From Gemmatimonadota bacterium (lineage in GTDB: Bacteria > Gemmatimonadota > Gemmatimonadetes > Palauibacterales > Palauibacteraceae), in NCBI GenBank assembly GCA_965116475.1, contig OZ220691.1, positions 2,112,001-2,176,000 of the forward strand: 64,000 bases of DNA, given 5' to 3'. The position numbers were made by a program, and so were the translations under genes. Below the pieces are notes generated by a model. It was not told the origin of the DNA. It was given only the letters and a program-made list of their open reading frames with translations, and did no database searches. This document shows, in pieces, positions 1-60,471 of this stretch; positions within the stretch are counted from its first letter, which is position 1; every line of letters begins with the position of its first letter.

Positions 1-339
1 GCGCGGGCGGAGCGGCCGGGCGAGCAGGCCGGTCGATACGCCGAGCTGCTGAGCGAAGCGACCGGGTTCGCGCACCATGCGGGCACCTTCCTCACCGACC
101 ATCGCCGGGCTTTCCAGGCCGCGCGGCGCCTGCGGGGCTGGATGCTCAGCTCCATCATCATCGATCGCCTGAACAAGCGCTTCGGGGCCGAATGGCACCG
201 CAGCGCCGCGGCGGGCAAGTTCCTGCTTGAAGTCCTCTCGGCGGGCCGGCGCGAGGACGCCGCGCAGCTCGCGCCCCAGTTCGGCGTGGAAGGACTCACC
301 CCCGAGATGCTCCTGCCGCGCGTCGAGCGCTGGCAGTGA
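1..339 (+). CDS. 5'-truncated conserved hypothetical protein (C-terminus loosely resembles M3/oligoendopeptidase-like proteins)
   Basis: Frame +1 is open from base 1 to TGA 337-339 (...AARRLRGWMLSSIIIDRLNKRFGAEWHRS...); the start lies outside the window. Confidence 0.6.
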   Translation, partial: ARAERPGEQAGRYAELLSEATGFAHHAGTFLTDHRRAFQAARRLRGWMLSSIIIDRLNKRFGAEWHRSAAAGKFLLEVLSAGRREDAAQLAPQFGVEGLTPEMLLPRVERWQ

Positions 340-386
340 GCGGACAGCAGTGAGCGGACGGCGGAGCGGACGGCGGTGAGCGGGCC
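333..386 (+). repeat. Imperfect tandem repeat (14/14/12/14 bp, GCAGTGAGCGGAC-like) at a gene junction
   Basis: gcagtgagcggaca-gcagtgagcggacg-gcggagcggacg-gcggtgagcgggcc. Confidence 0.85.
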
Positions 387-1422
387 GGGCTGGCCCGGCA
401 GGTTCGCGCTGGGCGCGGCGGCCGGGGTTGCGGGCGTCGCGTGGTGGCTCGCCATGACGCGCCGCAACGAGGCGCTCGTGCGGCCCCCCGTCCGGGACGG
501 CTCCGGCGAGGCGCTCCCCGGCGGTGTCATCGAGTACTCCGACGGCGAGACGGTCGAGTACGTCGACGCGGGGTCGGGAGCAGGGTCGGGAGCGGGGTCG
601 GGGGATGCGCTCGTCTGGATCCCCGGCGCGGACGGGCCGAAGGAGACGTTCCGCTATCAGCTGCCGAACTTCGCCCGGCGCCATCGCGTCGTATGCGCGG
701 ATCTGCGGCGCGAGTTTGCGGTGACGGACGACTTCGACCGCCTGGTCGACGACGTGGCCGAACTCGTCGATGCGCGCGACGTCGACCGCTTCGTGCTCAT
801 CGGAACGAGCCTCGGGAGCGCGATCGCGATGCGCTTCGCGAGCCGGTTTCCGGAGCGCGTGCGGGGGATCGTGCTGTGCAACCCGCTGGCGCGCGTCTCC
901 TACCGCCACGTCGGCTTCAACCGGGCCGCGCTCATCCCCCTCGCCATGGTGACGACCCGATATCTCCCGACGGAAATCTCCCGCGGCCTCGCCCGGGTCT
1001 GGAGCCGTCTCGGCGTGTGGATCTTCGACGACTCGCCGGGTCGGGACGCCCTGATCGAGTACGCGCTCTTCACCGGGCCGCGAACCGTCCGTCCTACGGT
1101 CTCCGACCGCCGCGTCTCCGGCCTGCGGCGGGTCGATCTGCGGACGGACCTGGCGGGCATCGCGGTGCCCGCGCTCGTGGTGAAGGGTCCGCACGACGAG
1201 TATTGTCCGGTGGACTGGGCGCGCGAAATTACCGAACTGCTCCCCGACGCCGAGTACGTCCCCATTCCCGGCACGGGGCACTGCTCGCACATCTCGCGCC
1301 CCGGCGCCTTCAATGGAACGCTGGCGGATTGGTTCCGGCGGCTCCGGGCGCGCGAGGAAGAGGAACGCGAAGAAGAGGAACGCGCGGAAGAGGAAGTGTC
1401 AGTCGAGAGAGGCGACGCATGA
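376..1422 (+). CDS. Alpha/beta hydrolase with N-terminal membrane anchor
   Basis: GTSLG nucleophile elbow, C-terminal D and H (GTGHCSH); AGSG x3 insertion; acidic tail. Confidence 0.85.
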   Translation: MSGPGWPGRFALGAAAGVAGVAWWLAMTRRNEALVRPPVRDGSGEALPGGVIEYSDGETVEYVDAGSGAGSGAGSGDALVWIPGADGPKETFRYQLPNFARRHRVVCADLRREFAVTDDFDRLVDDVAELVDARDVDRFVLIGTSLGSAIAMRFASRFPERVRGIVLCNPLARVSYRHVGFNRAALIPLAMVTTRYLPTEISRGLARVWSRLGVWIFDDSPGRDALIEYALFTGPRTVRPTVSDRRVSGLRRVDLRTDLAGIAVPALVVKGPHDEYCPVDWAREITELLPDAEYVPIPGTGHCSHISRPGAFNGTLADWFRRLRAREEEEREEEERAEEEVSVERGDA

Positions 1423-4802: not shown

Positions 4803-5462
4803 GTGCCGCGGCCGCGTTCCTGGAAGGCTCGTTCGGAGTTGGCCGCGGCCCTGTCGCCGCGACTTGCCGCCCTCTACCCGGACCTCACCGTCTCGCTGGA
4901 CTGGGAGACGCCGCTCGAGCTGATCGTCGCGACGGTGCTCTCGGCCCAGTGCACGGACGAGCGGGTGAACCGCGTCACGCGCTCGCTGTTCCCGGCCTAT
5001 CCCGACGCCCGCGCGTACGCCGACGCGCCGCTGGAGGAGCTTCAGGAGGCCGTGCGCCCGACGGGGTTCTTCAACAACAAGGCGCGCCACCTGAAGGGAT
5101 TGGGCCGCCGTCTCGTCGATGTGTACGGCGGGGAGGTCCCGCGGACGATGGAGGAGCTGCTCACGCTGCCGGGCGTCGCCCGCAAGACTGCGAACGTCGT
5201 GCTCTCCAACGCGTTCGGGCTTCACGAGGGCGTGGTCGTGGACACGCACGTGAAGCGGGTCACGCACCGCTTCGGTCTCACGAACGAGGTGGACCCCCCG
5301 AAGGTGGAGAAGGATCTGATGAGGGTGCTGCCGCGCGAGGAATGGCACCCCTTCGCGTGGCGGTCGATCCTGCATGGCCGCACCGTGTGCCACGCCCGGA
5401 AGCCGCGTTGCGCCGAGTGTCCGGTGGCCGATCTGTGCGCGAGCGCCGGGAAGTTCGGGTGA
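4803..5462 (+). CDS. nth: Endonuclease III
   Basis: LSAQCTD, HhH LPGVARKTANVV, VDTHV and C-X6-C-X2-C-X5-C FeS motif. Confidence 0.97.
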   Translation: MPRPRSWKARSELAAALSPRLAALYPDLTVSLDWETPLELIVATVLSAQCTDERVNRVTRSLFPAYPDARAYADAPLEELQEAVRPTGFFNNKARHLKGLGRRLVDVYGGEVPRTMEELLTLPGVARKTANVVLSNAFGLHEGVVVDTHVKRVTHRFGLTNEVDPPKVEKDLMRVLPREEWHPFAWRSILHGRTVCHARKPRCAECPVADLCASAGKFG

Positions 5463-5463
5463 C

Positions 5464-6537
5464 GTGAGTGTCGCCCGCGATGCCGCCGCGCTGAAGCGGG
5501 ACGTGCGCGCCGCCGCGCGGTCCGCCGGGTTCGACCGGGTGGGGTTCGCTCCCGCGGCGCCCCCGGCGCACGCGGGCGTCTACGAGGCCTGGCTCGCCGA
5601 CGGCTACCACGGCGAGATGGCCTACATGGCGCGCGAGGACGCGGTCCGCCGCCGCCTGGACCCGCGAGAGGCCCTTCCCGGCTGCCGGACGCTCATCGTC
5701 GTCAGCCTGCAGTACGGACCGACGCACGCCGGCACGACGACACCGGCGCGGCGGCTGCCGGTCGTCGCCCGCTACGCGCGGGGCCGCGACTACCACGATG
5801 TGTTCGAGGAGCGGCTCGACGCGCTCTCCGCCGCCATCGAAGCGCTTTCCCCCGGCGCGCGCACGAAGCGCTACGTGGACTACGGGCCCGTGCTCGAGCG
5901 GGACCACGCGCAGCGCGCGGGCCTGGGCTGGATCGGCAAGAACACGATGCTCCTCCACCCCGACCTCGGGTCCTATTTCATGCTGGGCGAGTTGCTCACC
6001 GACCTCGAGATCGAACCCGATCCCCCCTTCGTCCCCGACCGCTGCGGCACCTGCCGCCGCTGCATCGACGCCTGCCCGACGGACGCGATTCTGGATGGCC
6101 GCGTTCTCGACGCGCGGCTCTGCATCTCCTATCTCACGATCGAACTCCGGGGTTCCATCCCCGAGGCGCTCCGCCCCGCGATCGGAAACCGTGTGTTCGG
6201 CTGCGACATCTGCCAGGAAGTGTGTCCCTGGAACGCCGACGCGCCCGTGCCCGCGAAGGCGCCGTTCGCGCCCCGCCCCGGCCAGCCGGTGCCGCCTGAC
6301 GACATGATCGCGTGGGCGGAAGAACTCGCCCCCCTCGACGCCGACGAGTTCCGGGCCCGCTACCGCGGCACGGCGTTCAGCCGCCCCGGCCGCGACGGAC
6401 TCCTCCGCAACCTCGCCGTCGGCCTCGGCAACGCCGGCGAACCCGCCGCCCGCCCGATCCTCGACCGACTGCGGGCGGACCCGTCCCCCCTCGTCCGCGA
6501 GCACGCCCGATGGGCGCTCGGCGTGCTCCAGAGTTAG
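5464..6537 (+). CDS. queG: tRNA epoxyqueuosine(34) reductase
   Basis: ARYARGRDYH, VDYGPVLER, GLGWIGKN, CGTCRRCIDACPT, FGCDICQEVCPWN, C-terminal HEAT-like region; GTG start at 5464 inferred. Confidence 0.96.
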   Translation: MSVARDAAALKRDVRAAARSAGFDRVGFAPAAPPAHAGVYEAWLADGYHGEMAYMAREDAVRRRLDPREALPGCRTLIVVSLQYGPTHAGTTTPARRLPVVARYARGRDYHDVFEERLDALSAAIEALSPGARTKRYVDYGPVLERDHAQRAGLGWIGKNTMLLHPDLGSYFMLGELLTDLEIEPDPPFVPDRCGTCRRCIDACPTDAILDGRVLDARLCISYLTIELRGSIPEALRPAIGNRVFGCDICQEVCPWNADAPVPAKAPFAPRPGQPVPPDDMIAWAEELAPLDADEFRARYRGTAFSRPGRDGLLRNLAVGLGNAGEPAARPILDRLRADPSPLVREHARWALGVLQS

Positions 6538-11012: not shown

Positions 11013-12323
11013 ATGCCAGCCGTATACCATGCCGGCGTGTCCCGCAGGAAGGGCGGGATCCGCGGAGGCATCCGGCTCTTCGCGTGTGCCGTGGCGGCAG
11101 GCGGGGCCATGGCGTCTCAGTCGCGGGCGCAGGAGCGCGACACGCTCCACCTGGCCGACGCGGTCGCCGTGGCGCGCGGCGCGAACCCGATGCTGCGGGT
11201 CGCCCGCCTGCGAGCCGACGCCGCCCGGGCGCGCGTGCCGCAGATGGGCGCACCGCCCGATCCGGTCGTCGCGTTCCGCCTCGGAAACCGCCCCCTCGAC
11301 GGCTTCGGAGCGGGCGAGAGAATGACGATGAACACGCTCCAGTTCCAGCAGACGCTGCCCTGGCCGGGGAAGCTCGGGTTCGCGGAGGCGCGCGCGGCAC
11401 ACCTCGCGGGCGCCGAGGAACTGGCGGTCCTCGACGCCGAGGCCGCCCTCGTCCGGCGCGTGAAGGCGGTGTACTTCGAACTCGCCTTCGAAGACCGGGC
11501 ACTGGACATCATGCGCGACACGCGCGACCTCCTGCGTGAGTTTCTCGACGTCTCCAACACGCTCTACGCCGTGGGGGCCGGCCTGCAGAACGATGTCCTG
11601 CAGGCGCAGGTGGCCGTCGCCACGATGAGCGAGGACATCACGGCGGCGGAACAGACCCGGCTCGCCATGGCGGCCCGACTGAACGCGCTCCTGGGGCGCG
11701 AGCCCGAACGGCACGTGGGGGCGCTCGAACTTCCCGGTGCCGGCGAGCCGCTTCCCGGCGTGAAGGACCTCATGGCCCTGGCTGCCGAGAGACGGCCCGC
11801 GCTGCGCGCCGCCCGCGAGCGAATCCGGGCCGCGGAGTCGGCCTACGAGGGCGCCCGCCGCGCCCTGTACCCGGATGTGAGGCTCGGGGCCGACTACGCG
11901 CACCGGCCGCAGTTCGCGGACATGCTGAGTTTCAGCGTGGGAGTCAGCATCCCGCTATGGGCGGGTTCCCGCCAATTGCCCATGCGGGACGAAGCGTTCG
12001 CCCGCCGGGCCGCCGAGGAAGCCGCCGAACTCGAACTCCTGAACGAGACCTATGCCCGGATCGCGGAGGCGCGGGCCGAGTCGGACCGGGCGCTGCGACT
12101 CCACGACCTCTATGCCACGTCGATCCTCCCCCAGGCGCGGGCGGCGGTCGAGTCGTCGCTCTCCGCCTACCGCGTGGGTGAGGTGGATTTCATGACGCTC
12201 GTGCAGAGCGAACTCACCGTGAACCGCTACGAGATCGAACGCGTGAGACTCACCGCCGCCTATCACACGGCCGTCGCGGAGATCGAAGCGTTGCTGGGGG
12301 GCGAAACGGAGGTGATCCGATGA
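11013..12323 (+). CDS. TolC/CusC-family outer membrane efflux protein
   Basis: OEP repeats (QTLPWPGK, GVSIPLW, AYRVGEVDF); first gene of an RND operon; exact start uncertain. Confidence 0.9.
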   Translation: MPAVYHAGVSRRKGGIRGGIRLFACAVAAGGAMASQSRAQERDTLHLADAVAVARGANPMLRVARLRADAARARVPQMGAPPDPVVAFRLGNRPLDGFGAGERMTMNTLQFQQTLPWPGKLGFAEARAAHLAGAEELAVLDAEAALVRRVKAVYFELAFEDRALDIMRDTRDLLREFLDVSNTLYAVGAGLQNDVLQAQVAVATMSEDITAAEQTRLAMAARLNALLGREPERHVGALELPGAGEPLPGVKDLMALAAERRPALRAARERIRAAESAYEGARRALYPDVRLGADYAHRPQFADMLSFSVGVSIPLWAGSRQLPMRDEAFARRAAEEAAELELLNETYARIAEARAESDRALRLHDLYATSILPQARAAVESSLSAYRVGEVDFMTLVQSELTVNRYEIERVRLTAAYHTAVAEIEALLGGETEVIR

Positions 12324-13546
12324 CGCGACTCAACCTCTTGCCGGCCGCGCGCGCCGGGGTCGGGCTCGTTCCGGTCGCAGCCGCGCTCTGGGCCTGCGGC
12401 GGCGGCTCCGAGATGGCGGAGATGCCCGGCATGGAAGGCGATCACTCCGCGCACATGCCCGCCATGGCCGCGCCCTCGGAACCCGACACGATGCCGGCGT
12501 TCGGGCGCGGCCTCGTGCAGCTTACGTCGGAGCAGGAGCAGGCGCTGGGCGTCACGTACACCGCCGTGGAGCGGATCTCGGCGGTGCGCGAGATCCGGAC
12601 CGTGGGCCGCATCGACGCCCCCGAGGGCAACATCGCCGACATCACGCCCAAGACCGACGGCTTCGTCGAAGAACTGCTGGTCGCGACGACGGGTGAGGCC
12701 GTTCGCCGCGGCGAGCCGCTGCTCACGATCTACAGCCCCGCGCTCGTGGCGGCCCAGGAAGAACTCCTGACCGCACGCCGGCTCGCCGCGCAGGTGGACC
12801 CGGCGGCCACCGAGGCATGGTCGGGCGCGCAGTCCATGCTCGAGGCCAGCCGCCGCCGCCTCGCCTGGTGGGATATCACCGAGGAGCAGATCGAGCGGCT
12901 CGAACAGACGGGAGAGGTGACCAAGACGATGCGTCTCGTCGCTCCCGTGAGCGGGATCGTGCTCGAGAAGGATGTCGTCGAAGGACAGCGGGTGACGCCG
13001 GGTATGCGCCTGTACCGGATCGCCGACCTGTCGACCGTTTGGGTGGAGGGAGAGGTATTCGAACAGGACCTCCAGTTCGTCGAGGTGGGTTCCCAGGCCC
13101 ATATCGAGGTCACCGCCTATCCGGGCGAACACATGATGGGGGCGGTGAGCTTCGTCTATCCCACCGTGGAGATCGCGAGCCGCACGAACCGGGTCCGGGT
13201 CTCCGTGCCGAACCCCGGCCTGCGCTTCAAGCCCGGGATGTTCGCCACCGTCTTCTTCGAGGTCGCGGCGATCCAGGACGAAATCGCGGTGCCGCTGGAG
13301 GCCGTCGTCGTCACCGGTGAGAGGAACCTCGTCTTCGTGCGCGACGAGACGGGACTTCTGATGCCGCATGAGGTGGTGCTGGGGGCGCGCGCCGGAGATC
13401 GCGTCCAGATCCTCAGCGGTCTCGTGGAAGGTGAGACGATCGTCGCCTCCGCGAACTTCCTCATCGATGCCGAGTCCCGCCTCGGTGCGACGGGCGGGAG
13501 CATGCCCGGCATGCAGCACGCGGGGCACGGAATGGAGGGACGATGA
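12320..13546 (+). CDS. cusB: Heavy-metal RND periplasmic adaptor (CusB-like lipoprotein)
   Basis: Lipobox-like LWAC, Met/His-rich termini, IYSPALVAAQEELL, LYRIADLSTVWV, KPGMFA, FLIDAESRL. Confidence 0.9.
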   Translation: MTRLNLLPAARAGVGLVPVAAALWACGGGSEMAEMPGMEGDHSAHMPAMAAPSEPDTMPAFGRGLVQLTSEQEQALGVTYTAVERISAVREIRTVGRIDAPEGNIADITPKTDGFVEELLVATTGEAVRRGEPLLTIYSPALVAAQEELLTARRLAAQVDPAATEAWSGAQSMLEASRRRLAWWDITEEQIERLEQTGEVTKTMRLVAPVSGIVLEKDVVEGQRVTPGMRLYRIADLSTVWVEGEVFEQDLQFVEVGSQAHIEVTAYPGEHMMGAVSFVYPTVEIASRTNRVRVSVPNPGLRFKPGMFATVFFEVAAIQDEIAVPLEAVVVTGERNLVFVRDETGLLMPHEVVLGARAGDRVQILSGLVEGETIVASANFLIDAESRLGATGGSMPGMQHAGHGMEGR

Positions 13547-16500
13547 TCACGCGCGTCATCGCGTGGTCGATCCGGAACCGGCTCCTCGTGCTTCTCGGGA
13601 CCGCCGCGATCATCGGCGCGGGCCTTTGGTCCGTGCGTACGACGCCGCTCGATGCGATCCCGGACCTCTCGGATGTCCAGGTCATCGTCCAGACCGACTT
13701 CGCGGAACAGGCCCCGCAGATCGTCGAGGACCAGGTGACGTACCCGATCGCGTCCGAGATGCTGAAGGTGCCGGGCGCGCGCGTCGTGCGCGCATTTTCC
13801 TTCTTCGGGCTCAGCCTCGTGTACGTGATCTTCGAGGACGGCACGGACATCTACTGGGCCCGTTCCCGCGTGCTCGAATACCTGAACGGAATCCGGCGGC
13901 AGTTGCCGGAGAACGTCGAACCCGTGCTCGGCCCGGACGCGACGGGCGTGGGCTGGGTCTACGAGTACACGCTCGAATCCGACAGCCTGGACCTCGCCGA
14001 ACTGCGCACGCTCCAGGACTGGTACCTCCGCTATCAGCTGACCGCGGTGCCGGGCGTGGCCGAGGTCGCGAGCCTGGGCGGGTTCGTGAAGCAGTACCAG
14101 GTGGAAGTGAACCCGGAGCGGCTGCGCGCGTTCGACATCCCCGTCACGCGCGTGTCGCAGGCGATCGGCGACCACAACATCGACATCGGGGCTCGCGTCC
14201 TCGAGATGGGCGGGCGCGAATACATGATTCGCGGCCTCGGCTACCTGCGGGGGACCGTGGACATCGAGAACGTGGCCGTCGGATCGACGCCGAACGGCAC
14301 ACCGATCCGGGTGGCCGACGTGGCGATCGTGCAGGAAGGCCCGGCTCCCCGGCGCGGCGTCGCGGATCTCGACGGCCGGGGCGAGGTCGTGGCCGGGATC
14401 GTCGTCATGCGCTTCGGCTCGGACGCACTCGAGACGATCGAGCGGGTCAAGGAGCGGCTGGAGGAGATCAACGCGGGGCTGCCCGCCGGGACCCGGCTGC
14501 GGCCGGCCTACGACCGGAGCGACCTCATCCACCGGGCGATCGACACGCTACGCGAGAAACTCGTGGAGGAATCGCTCATCGTCGCGGCCGTGGCGCTGAT
14601 CTTCCTGCTCCACGTCCGCTCGGCGCTCGTCGCGATCGTGACGCTGCCCCTCGGCATCCTCATCTCGTTCATCGTCATGCGCTGGATCGGCGTGAACGCC
14701 AACATCATGAGCCTCGGCGGGATCGCCATCGCGATCGGGGCGATGGTGGACGCGGCCATCGTCATGGTCGAGAACATGCACAAGCATCTCGAGCGCGCGG
14801 CACCCGGCACATCTCGCTGGGACGTGGTCCTCGAGAGCGCGAAGCAGGTGGGTCCGCCCCTCTTCTTCTCCCTCCTCATCATCACGTTCAGCTTCCTTCC
14901 GGTGTTCGCGCTCGAGCAGCAGGAGGGCCGGCTGTTCAAGCCCCTCGCGTTTACCAAGACGTTCGCCATGGCGGGGTCCGCGTTCCTCGCGATCACGCTG
15001 GTTCCCGTGCTCATGGGGTATCTCGTGCGCGGGCGGATCCGTCCGGAGCGGGCCAACCCGGTGAATCGCGTCCTGCGCTGGCTCTATCGACCCTTCCTGG
15101 GCTTCGCGCTGCGCCGCCCATGGCTCGTGGTCTGCGCCGCCGTGGCGCTGCTCGGGGCCACGATCTTCCCGTGGCAGCGGCTCGGCAGCGAGTTCATGCC
15201 GCCGCTGCAGGAGGGGTCGATCCTCTTCATGCCGACCACCGTGCCGGGGGCGTCGATCGCCCAGGCGCGGGAGATCATGCGGTACCAGGACAGCGTCCTC
15301 GCGTCGTTTCCCGAGGTTGAGCGTGTGTTGGGGAAAGCGGGGCGCGCGGAAACCGCCACGGATCCGGCCCCGCTCGACATGTTCGAGACGACGATCACGC
15401 TGCGGCCGCCGGAGGATTGGCGCCCCGGCGTGACGTACGCCGGGCTGCTCGCGCAGATGGACGAGGCGGTCGCGCTCCCCGGCGTGACCAACGCGTGGAC
15501 GATGCCGATCAAGGGACGCATCGACATGCTCGCCACCGGCGTGCGCACCCCGGTGGGGATCAAGATCTTCGGACCGAATCTCGACACGCTGCAGGCGCTC
15601 GGGGAGGAGGCTGAGCGGATCGTGCGCCGGATCCCCGGGACGCGGAGCGCGTTCGCGGAGCGCGGGGTCTCCGGGTATTACGTCGACATCGATGTCGACC
15701 GGCCGGAGGCGGCGCGCTACGGCCTCAACGTCGGGGATGTGCACAACGCGATCATGGCGACCGTCGGCGGGATGAACGCGACGGTCACCGTGGAGGGGCG
15801 GGAGCGCTACGCCGTGAACGTCCGCTACCCGCGCGAACTGCGGGACGACCTGCAGAACCTGCGCGAGGTGCTGGTCCCGGTCCCCGATGGCACGCAGATC
15901 CCGCTCGGCCAGGTGGCACGCGTCGCGGCTGTCCAGGGGCCCATGGCCGTGAAGACCGAGAATGCCTTTCCCGTGACGACGATCTTCGTCGATATCGAGG
16001 GAGTGGATGTCGGGAGTTACGTGGACGAGGCCCGGCGCGTCGTCGCATCCCAACTCGAACTTCCCAGCGGGTACTCCCTCGTGTGGAGCGGGCAATACGA
16101 ATTCATGCAGCGGGTGCAGGAGCGTCTGCGCGTCGTGATTCCGGTCACGCTCGCCATCATCTTCCTGCTCCTCTACCTCAACTTCCGCGGCGTGGCCGAA
16201 TCGCTGATCGTCATGCTCGCCCTGCCGTTCTCGCTCGTGGGCGGCATCTGGTTCCTGTGGCTGCTGGGCTACAACACGAGCGTCGCGGTCTGGGTCGGGT
16301 TCATCGCGCTCGCCGGCGTGGCGGCGGAGACGGGCGTCGTGATGCTGATATACCTGGACGAGGCGTTCCGCCGCCGCCTCCGCGAAGGACGGATCGAGAC
16401 CGCCGCGGACGTGATGGCGGCGGTTCGCGAAGGGGCCCTGGAGCGGCTGCGTCCCGTGGTGATGACGGTGACGGCGATCACGGCGGGGCTGATGCCGATC

Positions 16501-16680
16501 CTGTGGAGTTCGGGCACCGGCGCGGACGTGATGAAGCGGATCGCCTCGCCCATGGTCGGAGGAATGATCTCCGCGACCGTCCTCACGTTGCTCGTGATCC
16601 CCGCCATCTACCTCCTGTGGCGCCGGTGGCAACTCCGGCGCCTGGCGGTCGCATCGACGCCGCCCGCTTCCCGGGCGTGA
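13543..16680 (+). CDS. cusA: CusA-family Cu(I)/Ag(I) RND efflux pump
   Basis: LDAIPDLSDVQV, GPDATGVGW, AMVDAAIV; Met-triad contexts FMPTT, PLDMFET and RIDMLATG. Confidence 0.96.
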   Translation: MITRVIAWSIRNRLLVLLGTAAIIGAGLWSVRTTPLDAIPDLSDVQVIVQTDFAEQAPQIVEDQVTYPIASEMLKVPGARVVRAFSFFGLSLVYVIFEDGTDIYWARSRVLEYLNGIRRQLPENVEPVLGPDATGVGWVYEYTLESDSLDLAELRTLQDWYLRYQLTAVPGVAEVASLGGFVKQYQVEVNPERLRAFDIPVTRVSQAIGDHNIDIGARVLEMGGREYMIRGLGYLRGTVDIENVAVGSTPNGTPIRVADVAIVQEGPAPRRGVADLDGRGEVVAGIVVMRFGSDALETIERVKERLEEINAGLPAGTRLRPAYDRSDLIHRAIDTLREKLVEESLIVAAVALIFLLHVRSALVAIVTLPLGILISFIVMRWIGVNANIMSLGGIAIAIGAMVDAAIVMVENMHKHLERAAPGTSRWDVVLESAKQVGPPLFFSLLIITFSFLPVFALEQQEGRLFKPLAFTKTFAMAGSAFLAITLVPVLMGYLVRGRIRPERANPVNRVLRWLYRPFLGFALRRPWLVVCAAVALLGATIFPWQRLGSEFMPPLQEGSILFMPTTVPGASIAQAREIMRYQDSVLASFPEVERVLGKAGRAETATDPAPLDMFETTITLRPPEDWRPGVTYAGLLAQMDEAVALPGVTNAWTMPIKGRIDMLATGVRTPVGIKIFGPNLDTLQALGEEAERIVRRIPGTRSAFAERGVSGYYVDIDVDRPEAARYGLNVGDVHNAIMATVGGMNATVTVEGRERYAVNVRYPRELRDDLQNLREVLVPVPDGTQIPLGQVARVAAVQGPMAVKTENAFPVTTIFVDIEGVDVGSYVDEARRVVASQLELPSGYSLVWSGQYEFMQRVQERLRVVIPVTLAIIFLLLYLNFRGVAESLIVMLALPFSLVGGIWFLWLLGYNTSVAVWVGFIALAGVAAETGVVMLIYLDEAFRRRLREGRIETAADVMAAVREGALERLRPVVMTVTAITAGLMPILWSSGTGADVMKRIASPMVGGMISATVLTLLVIPAIYLLWRRWQLRRLAVASTPPASRA

Positions 16681-17258: not shown

Positions 17259-19049
17259 TCAGTACGCGGTGGTGCGGAGCACCGGCTGGAAAAGGGCCGT
17301 GCGGTGCGCGCAGACGGGGTCCGCGGGGCACGCCGCGCAGTCGGGTTCCGTCATCTCCGGGCACCGCGTCCGGTTCTGAAAGAAGAACCAGTCCACGGCG
17401 CCCATCGAGCGTCCGCTCAGGCGCCGGATCTCCCCGACCGCCTCGTAGCAGGCGGCGCGCACGGCCTCCTCCTCTTCCACGCTCACAACCTCCCGCTTCG
17501 CGAGCTTCGCGGCCAGCGTCTCGTCGACCGCGGAGACGACGCCGAGCCGGAGGCAACTGCGCTGGCAGTGGTAGTCGATGATCGGCGGCACGTCCGCGGC
17601 CTCCCCCAGCCGCAGGAAGCGCTCCGGCCGCTGGCTGAGGATCGCCGCGAGGAGGGCGGACTTCTTGCGCCACGGGTCCTCCTTGTAGCCGCCGACCGCA
17701 TCGAGGCGAGCGAGAAAGCGGACCAGGGGCCGCTCCGCGGCGTTGGCTTCGGCCAGGAGCGACGCCGGGGTCAGGCCGAGGCCCACCATGTCGCGGCCGT
17801 ATGCCCGCGCGCACGCCGGATGGAGAACGCCCGCGGGGAGCGGGTTGCGGCCTCCGTCGTCCCGGAGGCGATGGTCGAAGTCCGCGTCGTCGAGGCCGGC
17901 CTGGCCCGCGGGGGTGAGTTCGTCCGGCGCCTCGCGGGCCCAGCGCAGGCAGGCGGCCCACAGGTAGTCGCTGCCCTTGAGGGCCCGGCCCCCCAGCGAG
18001 GCGATCATCGGTTCCCCGTAGCGGGCCGCGCGCTCGTGCCAGAAACCGAACTGCTGCACGGTGCCGGCGAAGAAGAAATCGAGCGCCGCCGGATCGCCGG
18101 GTGCGGGGAAGCCGGAGCCCGTGAAGTCGAAGGCCGCGGCTTCGGGCGCCGTCGCGATGACCCCGGCCACGCGCCGAATGCGATCCCCGTTGAGGCGGAC
18201 CCGGGCATCTCGCGCCGGCGCCGCCGGCGGGTCGTCCGAGAGGAGGGGCGCCGGACCGATGCCGGTCACCGTGTGCGCGGCCCGGGCCGCCGCCACGCGC
18301 GCCGCGATGGCGGGGTGGTCTCCGGCCGCGAGCCGGGCCAGCGCCGTCCCGCAGAAGGTGTCGCCGGCGCCCGTCGGATCCACCTCCGCGACCTCGGGGG
18401 TGGGGATGTCGATCGCGTGGTCGCCCACGACGACGCGAGCCCCGCTGGGCCCCCGCGTGACGAAGACCGCGCGCCCCGGCGCGGCCGCCACCCGATCGAG
18501 CGACCCGAAGAGGAGACCGGCCTCCTCCTCGTTGCAGAAGAAGTAGTGGGACGTCTCCGCCACCCGCGCGACGACCTCCCGGTGCGCCCGGATCCCCGGC
18601 GCGTACGTCCCGCACCCGACGCGGACGCCCGCCGCCGACAGCCGCCGCGCGAACCCCAACTGCAGCTCCGGATCGAGGAGAGGGACGACGTACGCGAAGG
18701 CGCCCGGTCCCGCGTCGGGGATGTCGCCGTAGCGGATGTCCCCCTCGGAACCGCGCACCGCCCGGCGATAGACGGTGCGGCCATCGGGAAAGTACTCGAT
18801 CTCGAAGTGGGGGAGCGCCGAGGGCGGGACGGGCGGCCCGCGCCAGTCGAGGAGGCGGTCCGCCGGTTCGAGTTCCGCCGGCATGGGATCGGGCCGCGGC
18901 GCGACGACCGTCACTGCGGCTCCGGCCCGTTGCGCCGCGAGCGCCGTGTAGAGTCCCGCGCCCCCGGCGGACCGCACGGAGCGGCCGCCGAAGTGCAGGA
19001 GGTCCAGTGAGGGGCTCCCGACCACGAGGAGCCGTGGCCGGGTGCTCAT
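17259..19049 (-). CDS. PfkB-family carbohydrate/nucleoside kinase fused to a Qng1/Q_salvage(DUF2419)-like N-glycosylase domain with 4-Cys motif
   Basis: N-half: GGAG, FCNEEEA, VTRGPSG, DPTGAGDTF. C-half: QFGFW, KKSALL, IDYH, EEEAVRAA, VDWFFF, C-X7-C-X2-C-X5-C, RTTAY-stop. Confidence 0.8.
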   Translation of the reverse strand: MSTRPRLLVVGSPSLDLLHFGGRSVRSAGGAGLYTALAAQRAGAAVTVVAPRPDPMPAELEPADRLLDWRGPPVPPSALPHFEIEYFPDGRTVYRRAVRGSEGDIRYGDIPDAGPGAFAYVVPLLDPELQLGFARRLSAAGVRVGCGTYAPGIRAHREVVARVAETSHYFFCNEEEAGLLFGSLDRVAAAPGRAVFVTRGPSGARVVVGDHAIDIPTPEVAEVDPTGAGDTFCGTALARLAAGDHPAIAARVAAARAAHTVTGIGPAPLLSDDPPAAPARDARVRLNGDRIRRVAGVIATAPEAAAFDFTGSGFPAPGDPAALDFFFAGTVQQFGFWHERAARYGEPMIASLGGRALKGSDYLWAACLRWAREAPDELTPAGQAGLDDADFDHRLRDDGGRNPLPAGVLHPACARAYGRDMVGLGLTPASLLAEANAAERPLVRFLARLDAVGGYKEDPWRKKSALLAAILSQRPERFLRLGEAADVPPIIDYHCQRSCLRLGVVSAVDETLAAKLAKREVVSVEEEEAVRAACYEAVGEIRRLSGRSMGAVDWFFFQNRTRCPEMTEPDCAACPADPVCAHRTALFQPVLRTTAY

Positions 19050-19059
19050 GCCGCCGGCG

Positions 19060-20445
19060 TCAGCCGCCCTGCTGGCCCTGCTGCTGGTCCGTCGTGATGC
19101 GCCCGGCCGCGCCCGCCGGCCCGTTGTCCCAGTCCTGGGCGCTGGAGATGTTCGGCACGCCCCAGTCCTCGCCGTTCCAGCCCTGGAAGCCCTCCATCCG
19201 GAAGGTCCACAGACCCGTCGTCATGTCGCTCACCACGATGAGTCCATCCTCGTTGCGGATGTCGACCCCGAACGTGCCGTTGAAGACGGGGGTCCGGTCG
19301 ACGTTCGGCGGCCCGAGGTAGGTGTCGTAGTGGCCCACCGTCATCGGGTTCTCCGGGTCCATCATGTTGAACACGACGAGTCCGTCCAGGTAGCCCGACA
19401 CGAACACGAGCGGCCAGCGCACCTCGTGGTTGTGGACGAGGTTCTTCCAGTTCGCCGTCCACGCCGCGATCGGGCGGTTGATGGCGGACACCTCGCCGTT
19501 CAGTCCCGGCCGGAGATCGAAGATCCTCAGCGGCGCGTACTGATACTCGGTCTCGGCGATCGCGAAGTTCCCGTCCGGCGTGGGCGTGAACGTGTGGCCG
19601 CTGCGAATCCCGGAGACCCCGACGATCTGCGTCAGAAGCTCGGGGCTCCCGAGATCCGTCACGTCGTAGATGTAGTAGCCGCCCGTGCCGCCGCCGTAGA
19701 AGCGGTCCGTCCCGGTTTCCGGGTGATAGCCGAGATAGAAATCGTGGTATCCCCGCCGCCGGTTCCCCTGCATCCCCTGATCCGGGACCGGAATCTGCGC
19801 CACCATCTCATCGCCCCGTCCCTCGACGAGCGCGCCGAGGTCGTAGACGGCCGCGTACGGTCCCGAGACCGTGGCGACGAGATACACGTTCATGTTCGAG
19901 TGCTTGTAGATGAAGATGTTGTGGAAGCCGCCCGGGAGATCGGGCTCCCTGATGCGGGCCACCTCACGCACCGTCGAGGCGTCCGGCAGGCCCGTGACGT
20001 CGAGGACCACGGCCCCCATGTCGGAGTCCGGGCCGCCCTGCCCGAACTGGAGCGACTGCACGACGTAGTAGCGGTCCCCCCACTTGAAGTGCTTCACGTC
20101 CATCCCGCCGGTGCGCTGGTGGAGGTCCTGGTCCTCGATCCGCCACTCGTAGAGCACCTCGGGGTTCTCCGGGTCCTCGATGGAGACGATGTCCAGCCCC
20201 TTTGGGCCCACCGGCCCGTACTGCATGCGCGCCACGTACGCGTAGGGCCGGTGCATCTCCTGCTCGATGTCCATGTCCGCGATGCTGAGCCGCGGGCCGA
20301 GCGGGACGTGTCCGAGCACTTCCATGTTCCGGCTGCCGCGCTCCACGACATCGATCGCCTGGGCGTCGAGTGCCGCCGGGGCGACGAAGACCGCTCCGAG
20401 CACGGCGAGCGCGGAGAGCGTCAGGGTCCGATTTCCAACCTTCAT
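19060..20445 (-). CDS. Secreted LVIVD-repeat (beta-propeller) protein
   Basis: Signal peptide; repeats such as LDIVSIEDPENP, IYDVTDLGSP, VFNMMDPENP; HN/HD motifs; GGAGG SD. Confidence 0.75.
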   Translation of the reverse strand: MKVGNRTLTLSALAVLGAVFVAPAALDAQAIDVVERGSRNMEVLGHVPLGPRLSIADMDIEQEMHRPYAYVARMQYGPVGPKGLDIVSIEDPENPEVLYEWRIEDQDLHQRTGGMDVKHFKWGDRYYVVQSLQFGQGGPDSDMGAVVLDVTGLPDASTVREVARIREPDLPGGFHNIFIYKHSNMNVYLVATVSGPYAAVYDLGALVEGRGDEMVAQIPVPDQGMQGNRRRGYHDFYLGYHPETGTDRFYGGGTGGYYIYDVTDLGSPELLTQIVGVSGIRSGHTFTPTPDGNFAIAETEYQYAPLRIFDLRPGLNGEVSAINRPIAAWTANWKNLVHNHEVRWPLVFVSGYLDGLVVFNMMDPENPMTVGHYDTYLGPPNVDRTPVFNGTFGVDIRNEDGLIVVSDMTTGLWTFRMEGFQGWNGEDWGVPNISSAQDWDNGPAGAAGRITTDQQQGQQGG

Positions 20446-20479
20446 TCTTTCCTCCGTTTTCGAACTGGCGGCCCGCGAG

Positions 20480-22213
20480 CTAGCCGGGATCCACCGTGAA
20501 CACCATGGACATGCCGGCCTCCAGATGCTCCGCAATATGGCAGTGCGCCATCCAGCGGCCAGAGTTGGAGGCCTCGAGCAGGATGTCGAACGTCGACCCG
20601 ACCGGGATCACGACCGTGTCCTTCCAGGCGAGATTGTCCGACGGCACCCCGTCCTTCGAGAGCACGAGGAAGCGCTGGCCGTGGATATGGATCGGGTGCT
20701 GCATCGGGTGGAACGAGCGGCGCTGGTTGTGGATGCGGATCTTCCGCACGTCCCCCACCGTGAACCGCCAGTCGATGTCCCGGTTCTCCTGCCCCGTCCG
20801 CGTGTCGCGCAGGATCCAGGTCAGGTTCTCCGATGTCGAGAGGAAGTTCATCATCGGCATCGCGTCCGTCCACTCCACGGGCGGGAAGTACAGCGTGTCG
20901 ATCGCCATCACCGCGACGATGTCGCTGGGGAGGTTCCCCACCCGGACCGTGAGTTCGAGTTCGTGGTCGACCGGCCGGCCGAACTCGCCGCGGTAGCGGT
21001 CAATGTCCTCGATGACGTCCACGTGCGCGCGCAGAGTGGAGAACGCGTCCCCGTGGTCCTCCGCCACCGGTTCGTCGAGGACCGTGACGAGCCCGAGCGT
21101 ATCCGTCTGCGGATAGAAGCGGCCGTTGAAGTGGTCGATGGCCTGGATCGGGTTGAGGAGCGCGTACGTGCCGGGCTCGTCGAAGCGGGCGTCGACGATG
21201 TACCGCTGGGCCGGGGCGAGGACGACGTTGGAGACGAAGCTCTCGCGCTCGAACTTGCTCACGTCGGCGCCGACGAGCTTCATCTCCGCGCCCTCGAGGA
21301 CGAGGTTGAAGGTGCGCGTGTTGGCGACGTTCGTGAGATAGAGGCGGCGAACCTCGCCGCGGCGGACCGTCGCCTCCCAGCGCGGCTCGCCGTTCACGAG
21401 CAACTGGTTCCCGAACCGGCCCATGAGCGTCTGCACGGCGGCTTCGCGTCCCCAGGGGAAGAGTCCTCCCTCGTCGACGAGCAGGTCGTCGAGCATGAGA
21501 AAGTCCTCGCCGTTCGCGGGACCGTAGTAGTCCGCGGCGGAGGCGTCGACGAGCATGTTCCCGTACAGGCCGAGGTCCTGCTGGATGTCCTCGCGGTGAT
21601 GGGGGTGGTACCAGTAGAGGCCGGCGTCCCGGAAATGGACCCGGTACATGAACGACTCGCCGGGCTCGACCGGATCCTGGGTGACTCCGGGGACGCCATC
21701 GAACTCGTTCTCGAGCCGGACGCCGTGCCAGTGGACGGCCGTCGGCAGGTCGATGTGGTTCGTGAACAGGACGATGATCTCCGCGCCCTGCGGGACGCGG
21801 ATGAGGGGACCGGGATACTGCCCGTTGAAGCCGTACATCGTGAAGGTCCGCGTCCCGATCGTGCGCCGCACGAACCCGGCCTCGAGGCGGAGCGTGTCGC
21901 CGTCGGCCATCTCCACGACCTCGCGGAAGACCGCCTCCGGGAGCATCGCCGGATCGTGGCCGGGGTCGGGCAGGTACGGGGTCACTACGGGGACGGCGCC
22001 CATCAGGCCCGGAAGCATCATCGGCATCGGGATCGGCTGCGGCGGCATGCGCCACACGGCCCCCGTGCTGTCCGTCGCCATCATGTGGCCCGCGTGCTGC
22101 TGCCCCGATGCCGGTGCGCCGCCCAGCCACACCAGCGCCTGAAAGGCCGCGCCGGCCGCGAAGGTACGGGCTGCCCGGTTGCCCGGTCGGCTCCTCGCCG
22201 CGCGAGGCATCAC
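20480..22213 (-). CDS. Three-domain multicopper oxidase (laccase/CueO-like)
   Basis: VHWHG, WYHPH, HPIHIHG and HCHIAEHLEAGM motifs; Met-rich N-terminus. Confidence 0.95.
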   Translation of the reverse strand: MMPRAARSRPGNRAARTFAAGAAFQALVWLGGAPASGQQHAGHMMATDSTGAVWRMPPQPIPMPMMLPGLMGAVPVVTPYLPDPGHDPAMLPEAVFREVVEMADGDTLRLEAGFVRRTIGTRTFTMYGFNGQYPGPLIRVPQGAEIIVLFTNHIDLPTAVHWHGVRLENEFDGVPGVTQDPVEPGESFMYRVHFRDAGLYWYHPHHREDIQQDLGLYGNMLVDASAADYYGPANGEDFLMLDDLLVDEGGLFPWGREAAVQTLMGRFGNQLLVNGEPRWEATVRRGEVRRLYLTNVANTRTFNLVLEGAEMKLVGADVSKFERESFVSNVVLAPAQRYIVDARFDEPGTYALLNPIQAIDHFNGRFYPQTDTLGLVTVLDEPVAEDHGDAFSTLRAHVDVIEDIDRYRGEFGRPVDHELELTVRVGNLPSDIVAVMAIDTLYFPPVEWTDAMPMMNFLSTSENLTWILRDTRTGQENRDIDWRFTVGDVRKIRIHNQRRSFHPMQHPIHIHGQRFLVLSKDGVPSDNLAWKDTVVIPVGSTFDILLEASNSGRWMAHCHIAEHLEAGMSMVFTVDPG

Positions 22214-30149: not shown

Positions 30150-30223
<74 letters not shown>

Positions 30224-30228
30224 TCTCT

Positions 30229-30264
30229 CGCCTCGCCTCGCAAAGCTGCGGGGCGAGGCGTTTT
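30229..30264 (+). terminator. Intrinsic terminator-like hairpin after tRNA-fMet
   Basis: 14-bp stem cgcctcgcctcgca/tgcggggcgaggcg, 4-nt loop, followed by TTTT. Confidence 0.55.
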
Positions 30265-30309
30265 GCTCTCCGATCCGTTTTGCGGAACGCTTGCGGGACG
30301 GGAGTACGA

Positions 30310-30382
30310 TCCGGGGTAGCTCAGTGGCCAGAGCGGGTGGCTGTTAACCACTAGGTCGTGGGTTCGAATCCCACCCCCGGAG
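30310..30382 (+). tRNA. tRNA-Asn(GTT)
   Basis: TCCGGGG/CCCCGGA acceptor stem, anticodon loop CT-GTT-AA, TTCGAAT. Confidence 0.95.
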
Positions 30383-30417
30383 TAGGACAGCAGGGCTCTT
30401 GCCACGGGCTGTCAAAG

Positions 30418-30490
30418 GGCTGGGTAGCTCAGGCGGTAGAGCACGGCGCTGAAAACGCCGGTGTCGGCGGTTCGACTCCGCCCCCAGCCA
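30418..30490 (+). tRNA. tRNA-Phe(GAA)
   Basis: GGCTGGG/CCCAGCC acceptor stem, CT-GAA-AA loop. Confidence 0.95.
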
Positions 30491-30533
30491 TTTTGCCACG
30501 GGCCGCCAATGGCCGGTTCGCGGGAAGCGGCAA

Positions 30534-30606
30534 AGGGGCGTAGCTCAATTGGTAGAGCACCGGTCTCCAAAACCGGCGGTTGGGGGTTCGAGTCCCTCCG
30601 CCCCTG
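30534..30606 (+). tRNA. tRNA-Trp(CCA)
   Basis: AGGGGCG/CGCCCCT acceptor stem, CT-CCA-AA loop. Confidence 0.95.
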
Positions 30607-30609
30607 TCG

Positions 30610-30681
<72 letters not shown>

Positions 30682-30706
30682 TGGAGCAGCTGGAACGGGA
30701 TGGCGG

Positions 30707-30781
30707 GCGCCCGTAGCTCAGTTGGATCAGAGCACCGGCCTTCTAAGCCGGGGGTCCCAGGTTCGAGTCCTGGCGGGCGCG
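30707..30781 (+). tRNA. tRNA-Arg(TCT)
   Basis: GCGCCCG/CGGGCGC acceptor stem, CT-TCT-AA loop. Confidence 0.95.
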
Positions 30782-30827
30782 TGGCAGTCAGGCGACAACG
30801 GACGACATTCGGACGACAGCGGCACGA

Positions 30828-30899
30828 GCCCCCATCGTCCAACGGCTAGGACACCACTCTTTCAAGGTGGAGATAGGGGTTCGATTCCCCTTGGGGGTA
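30828..30899 (+). tRNA. tRNA-Glu(TTC)
   Basis: GCCCCCA/TGGGGGT acceptor stem, CT-TTC-AA loop. Confidence 0.95.
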
Positions 30900-30917
30900 T
30901 GGACGGAGTTGAAGCGC

Positions 30918-30990
30918 GGGGCCGTAGCTCAGCTGGGAGAGCGCTGCAATGGCATTGCAGAGGTCAGGGGTTCGAATCCCCTCGGCTCCA
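30918..30990 (+). tRNA. tRNA-Ala(GGC)
   Basis: GGGGCCG/CGGCTCC acceptor stem with G3:U70, AT-GGC-AT loop. Confidence 0.95.
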
Positions 30991-31050
30991 CTTCGCGGCT
31001 GGAGCGCGACTTGCGGGCGCGAGTCCGTGAACCAGCTTGTGACGTCGTAC

Positions 31051-31123
<73 letters not shown>

Positions 31124-31140
31124 CTTCCCCCGCCTTACTT

Positions 31141-36999: not shown

Positions 37000-37074
37000 G
37001 CGCCCGTAGCTCAGCCTGGATAGAGCGCTTGCCTCCGGAGCAAGAGGTCACAGGTTCGAATCCTGTCGGGCGCA
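37000..37074 (+). tRNA. tRNA-Arg(CCG)
   Basis: GCGCCCG/CGGGCGC acceptor stem, CT-CCG-GA loop. Confidence 0.95.
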
Positions 37075-37142
37075 CTCGGTCCGGCGGAGCAGAACGCACC
37101 GGGCCGTGAAGCGGCTCCGGACCCGAAGGTTCAGGGGCGCAG

Positions 37143-37228
37143 GCTCGGGTGGCGGAACTGGCAGACGCGCAGGATTCAGGATCCTGTGGGATTAAACTCC
37201 CGTGGGGGTTCGACTCCCCCCCCGAGCA
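37143..37228 (+). tRNA. tRNA-Leu(CAG)
   Basis: GCTCGGG/CCCGAGC acceptor stem, TT-CAG-GA loop, long variable arm. Confidence 0.95.
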
Positions 37229-37234
37229 TCACCG

Positions 37235-37320
37235 GCCCAGGTGGCGGAACTGGCAGACGCGCTAGCTTGAGGGGCTAGTGTCCTTTTACGGACGTGGAGG
37301 TTCGAATCCTCTCCTGGGCA
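37235..37320 (+). tRNA. tRNA-Leu(GAG)
   Basis: GCCCAGG/CCTGGGC acceptor stem, TT-GAG-GG loop, long variable arm. Confidence 0.95.
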
Positions 37321-37361
37321 TGAAGACGTACGACATCGCCGGTCGGGACGGCCGGCTCCGA

Positions 37362-37435
37362 GCGCCCGTAGCTCAACTGGATAGAGCACCTGACTACGGA
37401 TCAGGAGGTTGGGGATTCGAATTCTCCCGGGCGCA
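37362..37435 (+). tRNA. tRNA-Arg(ACG)
   Basis: GCGCCCG/CGGGCGC acceptor stem, CT-ACG-GA loop; T-stem closes with A:U. Confidence 0.93.
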
Positions 37436-60465: not shown

Positions 60466-60471
60466 GTCCAA

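Follow-up and report, generated by a model that had tools for sequence, protein, structure and literature searches.

The window analysed here, i.e., the whole stretch of 64,000 nucleotides taken from contig OZ220691.1 of a Gemmatimonadota bacterium (assembly GCA_965116475.1), has a G+C content of about 70%. At 17259..19049 it carries a gene on the reverse strand (ATG start, TGA stop, stop codon included) for a predicted bifunctional protein of 596 residues; all features of this gene given below lie on the same strand. The N-terminal part of the protein (residues 1–270, 18240..19049) is a PfkB, i.e., ribokinase-family, kinase domain with a small β lid, recognized by the Pfam family PF00294 and by fold matches. 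A short linker of residues 271–283 (SDDPPAAPARDAR, 18201..18239) follows, modelled without regular secondary structure and with a predicted local distance difference test (pLDDT) score of 82 for this block. The C-terminal part (residues 284–596, 17262..18200) is a helix-hairpin-helix (HhH) domain resembling the N-glycosylase Qng1, as found with a family profile, an AlphaFold2 model and Foldseek.

A first-pass annotation of this gene, made from the sequence, had listed a series of motifs, and we found every one of them in the claimed order: DPTGAGD (residues 224–230), QQFGFW (332–337), GRALKG(SD) (354–361), KKSALL (462–467), IDYH (491–494), LAKREVV (516–522), EEEAVRAA (526–533), VDWFFF (552–557) and the RTTAY tail ending at residue 596. 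The AlphaFold model of the full-length protein reached a pLDDT of 92.4 and a predicted template modelling score (pTM) of 0.92, which suggests a fixed arrangement of the kinase and glycosylase halves in the model. The last four residues (17262-17273) had pLDDT values below 50 in this model, which was built with a shallower alignment; the same residues were placed confidently in a model of the C-terminal domain only, where the last pLDDT blocks were 97–98.

A conserved fusion protein

In a search with the full protein, 445 of 8000 scored candidates were relatives at E ≤ 1e-3, among them full-length homologs at 100% coverage. PF00294 was present in all of the 120 full-protein matches listed and PF10343 (Q_salvage) additionally in 8, and nearly all of these proteins were 541–644 residues long. 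By source name, full-protein matches came from Candidatus Palauibacter (91% identity), other Gemmatimonadota, Acidobacteriota and Anaerolineae; relatives carried only the public labels 'hypothetical protein' or 'carbohydrate kinase family protein'. When 23 fused proteins were aligned down to 30% identity (alignment A2), they showed one common domain junction and invariant residues in both halves.

A genome scan with A2 returned 80 loci, mostly via the generic DPTGAGD kinase motif, and nine of these were true relatives. Five were full-length fusions, found in two Gemmatimonadota metagenome-assembled genomes (MAGs), in Ca. Palauibacter irciniicola, in a Neomarinimicrobiota MAG and in a MAG labelled 'Proteobacteria'. 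Two were standalone glycosylases (loci L008 and L009, from Lindowbacteria and Paceibacterota), one was partial (Ilumatobacteraceae) and one was a decayed fusion in a Chloroflexota MAG. In this last locus (L007, 7001-7989) the kinase part is intact (residues 6–304, 45% identity) and is followed by a glycosylase remnant of 38 residues (456–493, 66% identity) and then by a phosphoribosyltransferase gene.

We conclude that the PfkB–glycosylase fusion is real, conserved and present in several phyla. The first-pass annotation had left room for an assembly or frameshift artefact; the same architecture and junction in 23 aligned proteins and at five genome loci from different phyla speak against this. 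It had also proposed a survey of the architecture and its gene neighbours, which brought up hundreds of fused homologs of ~600 residues and partner genes that are not conserved outside Gemmatimonadota.

Glycosylases without a kinase occur as well; 49 of the 150 relatives listed were standalone proteins of 295–375 residues. We built a quick tree only, from 74 glycosylase domains, in which 'fused' means a length of at least 420 residues and hence includes a GTP-cyclohydrolase fusion (P0226). All 22 long forms fell within one clade of 38 rows (Shimodaira–Hasegawa-like approximate likelihood ratio test, SH-aLRT, 90), and the window protein was placed in a clade of 15 rows with 14 long forms and one short form (SH-aLRT 96). 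The fused or standalone label was forced to change at least five times on this tree.

The C-terminal domain is a distant relative of Qng1

Searched on its own (316-residue query, P0002), the C-terminal domain had no Pfam match at E ≤ 10 and no match in the PDB by phmmer at E ≤ 10. Among 1.84 billion cluster representatives, all of which were searched, 339 relatives of the domain reached E ≤ 1e-3; 174 of them passed 1e-10 and 84 passed 1e-30. Each relative stands for a cluster at 50% identity, and both fused (~600 residues) and standalone forms (~320 residues) are included. We aligned the window domain with 55 standalone relatives (profile A1, 56 sequences) and compared this profile with the PDB. 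Over profile positions 3–294 it matched S. thermophilus Qng1 (7uk3/7u07) with an E-value of 6.4e-15, and it matched human Qng1 (7ugk) with 2.4e-14. Far weaker was the match to the iron–sulphur (Fe-S) glycosylase ROS1 (E 8.9e-4), and endonuclease III chains were matched in the cysteine region only, at non-significant E-values of 0.13–1. Since direct single-sequence searches were empty, the homology to Qng1 is visible only with the family profile. When the A1 members were searched one by one, 43 of 56 matched PF10343 (E ≤ 0.01), two matched AGOG and one matched the endonuclease III Fe-S domain PF10576 (E 0.0062); the window domain matched none.

The AlphaFold2 model of the domain, built on A1, had a pLDDT of 97.1 and a pTM of 0.94. 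In a Foldseek search of the PDB with this model, ranks 1–11 were all Qng1 (E 2e-12 to 1e-10, TM-score 0.75–0.78), and the model shows the two-lobe HhH fold together with the additions specific to Qng1. A second tier, with E-values from 5e-3 and TMq values of at most 0.49, contained endonuclease III, MutY/MUTYH, NTHL1 and the thermostable thymine-DNA glycosylase 1kea (MIG), all of which we take to be cluster-bearing HhH enzymes, and which ranked ahead of AGOG and OGG1. From profile and fold we conclude that the C-terminal domain is a distant relative of Qng1/DUF2419. The Qng1-like domain of the earlier annotation thus stands, with a significant match on both counts. Most of the Qng1 motifs named there (NFCFW, YKRAQIL, ADYKVPQ, EEVEIRAA and VDWLLW) are indeed seen in the alignment to the S. 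thermophilus chain; of its terminal RTIFY, the published tail I321-F-Y323 (PMC9881137) covers the IFY.

Active-site residues

We located the Qng1 active-site residues in the window domain with the A1 profile alignment to S. thermophilus Qng1 (StQng1), took their roles from the description in PMC9881137 and counted conservation over 74 full-length domains. The nucleophile D231 corresponds to Asp492 (71/74) and the ribose-stacking Y232 to Tyr493 (68/74), both within IDYH (17568..17579). The lysine of the HhH motif, K199, which contacts the ribose 2'- and 3'-hydroxyls, is represented by Lys462 (17664..17666; Lys in 71/74), and F75, also stacking on the ribose, by Phe336 (69/74). Around the base, I203 of the base sandwich aligns with Leu466 (67/74), W302, which stacks on the base, with Phe557 (Phe in 40/74, Trp in 30/74), and D298, which reads the guanine-type base edge, with Asp553 (17391..17393; Asp in 70/74). 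E267, which binds the terminal tyrosine, is Glu527 (61/74). The tail FQPVLRTTAY (17262..17291) ends in Tyr596, the counterpart of Y323 (terminal Tyr in 65/74), whose terminal carboxylate enters the active site in Qng1 (PMC9881137). Since the catalytic, ribose-binding and edge-reading residues of Qng1 align and are conserved in 61–71 of the 74 domains, glycosylase chemistry and recognition of a guanine-type base edge are predicted to be retained.

Two standalone members, P0244 and P0246, keep the four cysteines described below and have lost the catalytic Lys, the catalytic Asp and the guanine-edge Asp. Judged from these residues, they may be inactive paralogues that keep only the cluster module.

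The kinase domain

PF00294 matched the window protein with 69.5 bits (cut-off 25.8), aligned over residues 157–267 only, and no other Pfam family was found in the protein. The complete PfkB domain claimed earlier is thus covered by Pfam in part only, whereas its completeness is borne out by the fold search (~300 columns against kinases of ~300 residues) and by the multiple alignment. The protein passed no NCBIfam model; its best score was 46 bits for the ribokinase equivalog TIGR02152, against a cut-off of 299.65. In the PDB, the best sequence match was 3kd6 from Chlorobium tepidum (E 3.2e-7, ~23% identity), whose substrate is known from the depositors' title only ('nucleoside kinase ... with AMP'); it was followed by YdjH, the Burkholderia thailandensis nucleoside kinase set 3b1n-r, 2-keto-3-deoxygluconate (KDG) kinase and the M. 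jannaschii nucleoside kinase. The top fold matches were ribokinases, nucleoside kinases, adenosine kinase and KDG kinase, all with E-values of about 1e-13, and 3kd6 had the best TM-score (0.74).

For the functional residues, we aligned 72 kinases with MAFFT, i.e., the window domain, nine fused forms and PfkB open reading frames (ORFs) from the fetched loci, among them a ribokinase-like ORF (L046) that scores 297.7 bits on TIGR02152. Asp16 (19002..19004) aligns with the Asp of L046 and represents the Asp that binds the sugar 2'- and 3'-hydroxyls in the ribokinase family (Asp in 70/72). NEEE (18522..18533; N173 and E176 each in 71/72) is the NxxE motif of PfkB kinases, and DPTGAGD (18360..18380) provides the anion hole and the predicted catalytic Asp230 (D224 and G227 in 72/72, D230 in 71/72). 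In AGGAGLY (18948..18968), Ala31 and Tyr34 come after the two glycines and occupy the positions of the ribokinase Lys and Asn; each of these two ribokinase residues is missing in 71 of the 72 kinases, with L046 as the sole exception. Human ribokinase is described as binding ribose via D27, K54, N57 and E154, with the variants K54A and N57A nearly inactive (PMC12621476). The window kinase instead shares the pattern GG-[SA]-x-x-[YF], which replaces ribokinase GGKGAN, with the 3kd6-type protein, with the B. thailandensis (3b1n-r) and M. jannaschii (2c49) nucleoside kinases and with adenosine kinases; it differs from 3kd6 in its low identity and in Glu102, which is typical of the fused clade. With the GG, NxxE and DPTGAGD motifs intact and the ribose-binding Lys and Asn absent, the domain is predicted to be a catalytically competent member of a PfkB subfamily other than ribokinase.

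Glu102 (18744-18746) lies in the kinase lid. It is invariant in the 23 fused proteins and present in 11 of the 72 kinases, while most standalone kinases have Phe or Leu here, and it is a candidate base-recognition residue. The closest standalone kinases were of little help here: L007 is the decayed fusion described above, and L021 has Fpg, a folate enzyme and transporters as neighbours.

A four-cysteine motif before the C-terminal tail

The C-X7-C-X2-C-X5-C motif reported by the first-pass annotation at 17310..17363 is exact and comprises C563, C571, C574 and C580. Among the 150 relatives listed, 110 have an intact FQP...Y C-terminus, the other 40 being fragments or proteins without the tail. 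The four-cysteine motif is present in 106 of these 110 and the exact spacing in 98; in the rows inspected it mostly stands 16 residues before the C-terminus. Each cysteine is found in 72–73 of the 74 full-length domains, with P0260 lacking them, and the region has a pLDDT of 96–98 in the domain model. Since the motif and the fused length both recur among relatives, they are more than a product of chance. In the A1 profile alignment, the solved Qng1 chains have no cysteine at any of the four positions, in agreement with the earlier remark that the motif is not known from Qng1, an enzyme described as metal-independent (PMC9881137).

The loop had also been likened to the 4Fe-4S loop of endonuclease III (Nth). 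In structure the second Foldseek tier of Fe-S HhH enzymes speaks for this likeness; in sequence the evidence is weak: the profile matches to endonuclease III were not significant, a PDB search with the cysteine loop alone as single-sequence query returned no endonuclease III, and PF10576 is not matched by the window protein. The first cysteine spacing also differs, being X7 here and X6 in endonuclease III. The case for a loop of this type is built on its location where the HhH fold ends on the C-terminal side, on the second structural tier and, as no more than a lead, on an Atlas cluster of archaeal relatives with the automatic name 'iron-sulfur cluster loop family protein'. Judged from conservation and position, the four cysteines most likely bind a [4Fe-4S] cluster, an inference that we regard as well founded.

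Genomic context

The presence of queG in the window, noted before, was confirmed: the gene for epoxyqueuosine reductase lies at 5374-6537 on the forward strand (TIGR00276, 355 bits against a cut-off of 200). From its presence, the organism is predicted to complete queuosine (Q) by the canonical route. In this bacterial route, it is preQ1 and not queuine that tRNA-guanine transglycosylase (TGT) inserts. Among the 51 called genes of the window, no further Q gene was recognized.

The fusion gene is flanked by a CusCBA-type metal efflux system, a DUF4440/SnoaL-like protein, an uncharacterized protein of 491 residues and a multicopper oxidase. The efflux operon, of CusCBA/CzcCBA type, spans 11013-16680 on the forward strand, and the oxidase and the 491-residue protein are encoded upstream of the fusion gene at 19060-22213 on the reverse strand. 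Only these two recur upstream at other loci, and in Gemmatimonadota only; the uncharacterized protein has 489 residues in L001 and 454 in L002, and in L003 only the oxidase was scanned. Outside Gemmatimonadota, no conserved neighbour was found at the nine loci. We read the oxidase and uncharacterized-protein neighbourhood as lineage synteny.

The window also contains two tRNA arrays on the forward strand, one of nine genes at 30150-31124 (Met, Asn-GTT, Phe, Trp, Thr, Arg, Glu, Ala, Lys) and one of four at 37000-37435 (Arg, Leu, Leu, Arg); tRNA-Asn is the only one with a queuosine-type GUN anticodon. At 60229-60513 on the reverse strand, a ParD-family antitoxin scores just below the cut-off (TIGR02606, 45 bits against 46.2), with small unassigned ORFs nearby. 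In the Lindowbacteria locus L008, a group II intron (RF02005, 132.8 bits, 308-557, reverse strand) lies several kilobases from the standalone glycosylase gene.

Discussion

We propose that the fusion protein converts a nucleoside to its 5'-monophosphate and then to free base and ribose-5-phosphate, acting on queuosine or a related 7-deazaguanine nucleoside; we give this proposal an even chance of being correct. The substrate would be a modified purine nucleoside, from RNA turnover or taken up from outside, most likely queuosine or another 7-substituted 7-deazaguanosine. The PfkB domain would use ATP to phosphorylate its 5'-hydroxyl, and the Qng1-like domain, by homology, would cut the N-glycosidic bond of the resulting monophosphate to give the free base and ribose-5-phosphate. 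In this second step Asp492 would act as nucleophile or as stabilizing residue, Lys462 and the C-terminal carboxylate of Tyr596 would hold the ribose, and Asp553 would read the guanine-type (2-amino-6-oxo) edge. The four cysteines would most probably coordinate a [4Fe-4S] cluster with a structural role, which gives its shape to the loop that runs into the active-site tail, as it does in endonuclease III and MutY.

Three lines of evidence lead to this order of steps. Qng1 prefers queuosine-5'-monophosphate (Q-5'MP) over the nucleoside, 12-fold for the human and 1.7-fold for a bacterial enzyme (PMC9881137). Adenosine kinases of the ribokinase family are reported to bind 7-substituted 7-deazapurine nucleosides (PMC5656927). 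Finally, pseudouridine is degraded by the PfkB kinase PUKI/YeiC and then by the glycosylase PUMY/YeiN, which in animals are described as one polypeptide (PMC7797080). The pathway logic is the same as proposed here, i.e., a PfkB kinase makes the 5'-monophosphate of a modified nucleoside from RNA turnover, and a glycosylase releases the base and ribose-5-phosphate. The resemblance is in this logic and not one of membership: PUMY has an unrelated fold and cleaves the C-glycosidic bond of a pyrimidine C-nucleoside, and Pfam found no PUMY-type domain in the window protein.

A second fusion also bears on the substrate. In a divergent clade of the same glycosylase family (P0226 and P0386, two clusters), the domain is joined to GTP cyclohydrolase II (PF00925, E 4.5e-38) and keeps all catalytic residues and all four cysteines. 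This ties the glycosylase family to guanine-type nucleotides. Fusions of GTP cyclohydrolase II with N-glycosidases are known for riboflavin intermediates.

Several observations weigh against queuosine and against the proposed order of steps. The window protein does not match PF10343, either as a whole at E ≤ 1 or with the C-terminal domain searched alone at E ≤ 10, and the domain shares only 16–18% identity with the Qng1 chains in Foldseek. With Qng1/QNG1 (DUF2419, PF10343; 7u07, 7uk3, 7ugk), the Q-5'MP N-glycosylase, it has in common the fold, the catalytic Asp and Lys, the stacking Phe and Tyr, the edge Asp and the Tyr tail, whereas it differs in the kinase fusion, in the extra four-cysteine stretch before the tail and in the residues around the 7-substituent and the phosphate. 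The StQng1 residues Y93 and W94 belong to the cyclopentenediol (7-substituent) pocket of queuine (PMC9881137). They are replaced by Ser360 and Asp361 of KGSD (residues 358–361, 17967..17978), aligned with high posterior probability and conserved as Ser in 62/74 and as Asp in 56/74, plus Glu in 7/74. The aromatic side-chain pocket of W48, Y93, W94 and W299 is thus not kept, the W299 position being variable. In the phosphate site R80/K233/Q306, the phosphate ligand K233 is His494 of IDYH (His in 71/74), Q306 is Thr with a neighbouring conserved Arg560 (68/74), and R80 falls in a hairpin aligned with low confidence. With Y93 and W94 replaced, W299 variable, K233 changed to His and R80 not alignable with confidence, Q as substrate and a conserved phosphate site are candidates only; His494, Arg560 and Lys358 may contribute to such a site. 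The bacterial Qng1 preference for the monophosphate is small, as given above, and kinase motifs are degenerate in some fused relatives, e.g., P0155. No Q-pathway gene stands beside the fusion gene in the window or its relatives at the nine related loci, and a riboswitch scan of the window and these loci found no preQ1 or other riboswitch near the gene. With QueG present and TGT inserting preQ1, the purpose of free queuine in this organism is not evident; by analogy with pseudouridine, a queuine-releasing role could be catabolic. Taken together, gene context, riboswitch scans and QueG neither support nor contradict the link to queuosine.

The same kinase-then-glycosylase chemistry may serve a substrate other than queuosine or 7-deazaguanosine, i.e., another nucleoside or nucleotide with a guanine edge such as 7-methylguanosine (m7G), glycosylated or epoxy Q, or a ring-opened guanine derivative, in catabolism or damage control and not on a route to Q-tRNA. 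The exchange of Y93 and W94 for the conserved polar Ser-Asp of KGSD implies that queuosine itself may not be the substrate, a caution already voiced in the first-pass annotation and upheld here. Such a substrate would also fit with a canonical preQ1 route implied by QueG, with the absence of a Q-gene neighbourhood and of a preQ1 riboswitch, and with the divergent clade fused to GTP cyclohydrolase II. The product of that enzyme, a ribosylaminopyrimidine 5'-phosphate, has the same 2-amino-4-oxo edge. The pseudouridine pair, too, is catabolic (PMC7797080). Against this stands that the only characterized relatives, human and bacterial Qng1, are queuine-specific and were inactive on adenosine, uridine, cytidine and guanosine monophosphates (AMP, UMP, CMP and GMP) in the assays described (PMC9881137). 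Moreover, one pocket aromatic, W48, is retained as Phe309 in 64 of the 74 domains, and nothing speaks positively for any particular alternative. We hence regard a substrate of this kind as fairly unlikely.

The first-pass annotation had offered two routes. The second, cleavage of the nucleoside by the glycosylase with the PfkB domain as a ribokinase that turns the freed ribose into ribose-5-phosphate, appears improbable. Ribokinases are among the top structural matches, the ribokinase model is the best NCBIfam match, and bacterial Qng1 cleaves the nucleoside at ~60% of the rate reported for the monophosphate (PMC9881137). However, human ribokinase depends on a Lys and an Asn whose places are taken by Ala31 and Tyr34 here and which 71 of 72 kinases of the subfamily lack, and the score of 46 bits is far from the cut-off of 299.65, which the ribokinase-like L046 almost reaches. 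The closest neighbour by sequence and TM-score, 3kd6, is titled a nucleoside kinase. Residues and model score therefore favour, as far as the sequence can tell, the first route from nucleoside to monophosphate to base.

It is just as improbable, in our estimate, that the two domains are catalytically uncoupled, with a regulatory or scaffolding kinase-like part (a pseudokinase in some lineages) and a glycosylase that acts alone on nucleotides from RNA turnover. This would account for the 49 standalone glycosylases, for the standalone loci L008 and L009, where no PfkB gene was found among the scanned neighbours, for the degenerate kinase motifs of some fused forms and for the repeated label changes on the quick tree. 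However, all kinase catalytic motifs are intact in the window protein and in most fused forms, the fused forms cluster in one 38-row part of the tree, and the pTM of the full-length model suggests a fixed arrangement.

It is highly improbable that the C-terminal domain acts on DNA or RNA polymers as a glycosylase of the endonuclease III/MutY type: it shares with endonuclease III, MutY and NTHL1 the HhH fold and a four-cysteine motif at its C-terminal end, with weak profile matches over the cysteine region, second-tier structural matches and a profile match to ROS1, but its TM-scores are at most 0.49 to these enzymes and 0.75–0.78 to Qng1, its Qng1-type insertions occupy the DNA cleft, the β-hairpin after FGFW and the C-terminal Tyr tail, which block this cleft in Qng1, are both present, and Qng1 is reported to have no activity on tRNA (PMC9881137).

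Queuine is also released in bacterial salvage by QueK, the queuosine nucleoside hydrolase of Clostridioides difficile. QueK is described as unrelated in structure and mechanism, i.e., as a Ca2+-dependent member of the nucleoside hydrolase superfamily whose preferred substrate is the nucleoside and which works without a kinase (PMC9881137).

Our literature searches brought up no published account of a PfkB–Qng1 fusion or of a cluster-bearing Qng1 relative, nor a paper on queuine salvage in Gemmatimonadota; earlier work on DUF2419 may cover bacterial architectures, and the fusion may be catalogued elsewhere without remark. The supplement of the Qng1 structure paper (PMC9881137) has no mention of a fusion, iron, PfkB or a cluster. 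Nor did we find, in the literature, a paper that names a queuosine kinase: the kinase making Q-5'MP was called 'unidentified' in Nucleic Acids Research in 2023 (PMC9881137), and the step 'unknown' in PNAS in 2025. Eukaryotes depend on salvage for queuine, a micronutrient of bacterial origin, and Qng1 acts on the 5'-monophosphate of queuosine; a conserved natural fusion of a kinase with a Qng1 relative is hence a Rosetta-stone lead to the missing kinase class. Tentatively, and as a possibility that we rate as fairly unlikely, the fused PfkB domain would act as a 5'-kinase on queuosine (7-deazaguanosine), and the cluster-bearing family would be the link that shows Qng1 arising from Fe-S HhH DNA glycosylases with later loss of the cluster. 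If the PfkB domain is such a kinase, its standalone relatives and, by extension, eukaryotic kinases of the ribokinase family become candidates for the missing step.

With 339 clusters at 50% identity, a sizeable family joins the active site of Qng1 to a four-cysteine loop. With it, the nucleotide-directed HhH glycosylases come to include putative Fe-S enzymes, and a path from DNA-repair glycosylases to Qng1 is suggested. If the substrate is not queuosine, the family would represent a new bacterial recycling route for modified nucleosides, parallel to pseudouridine catabolism.

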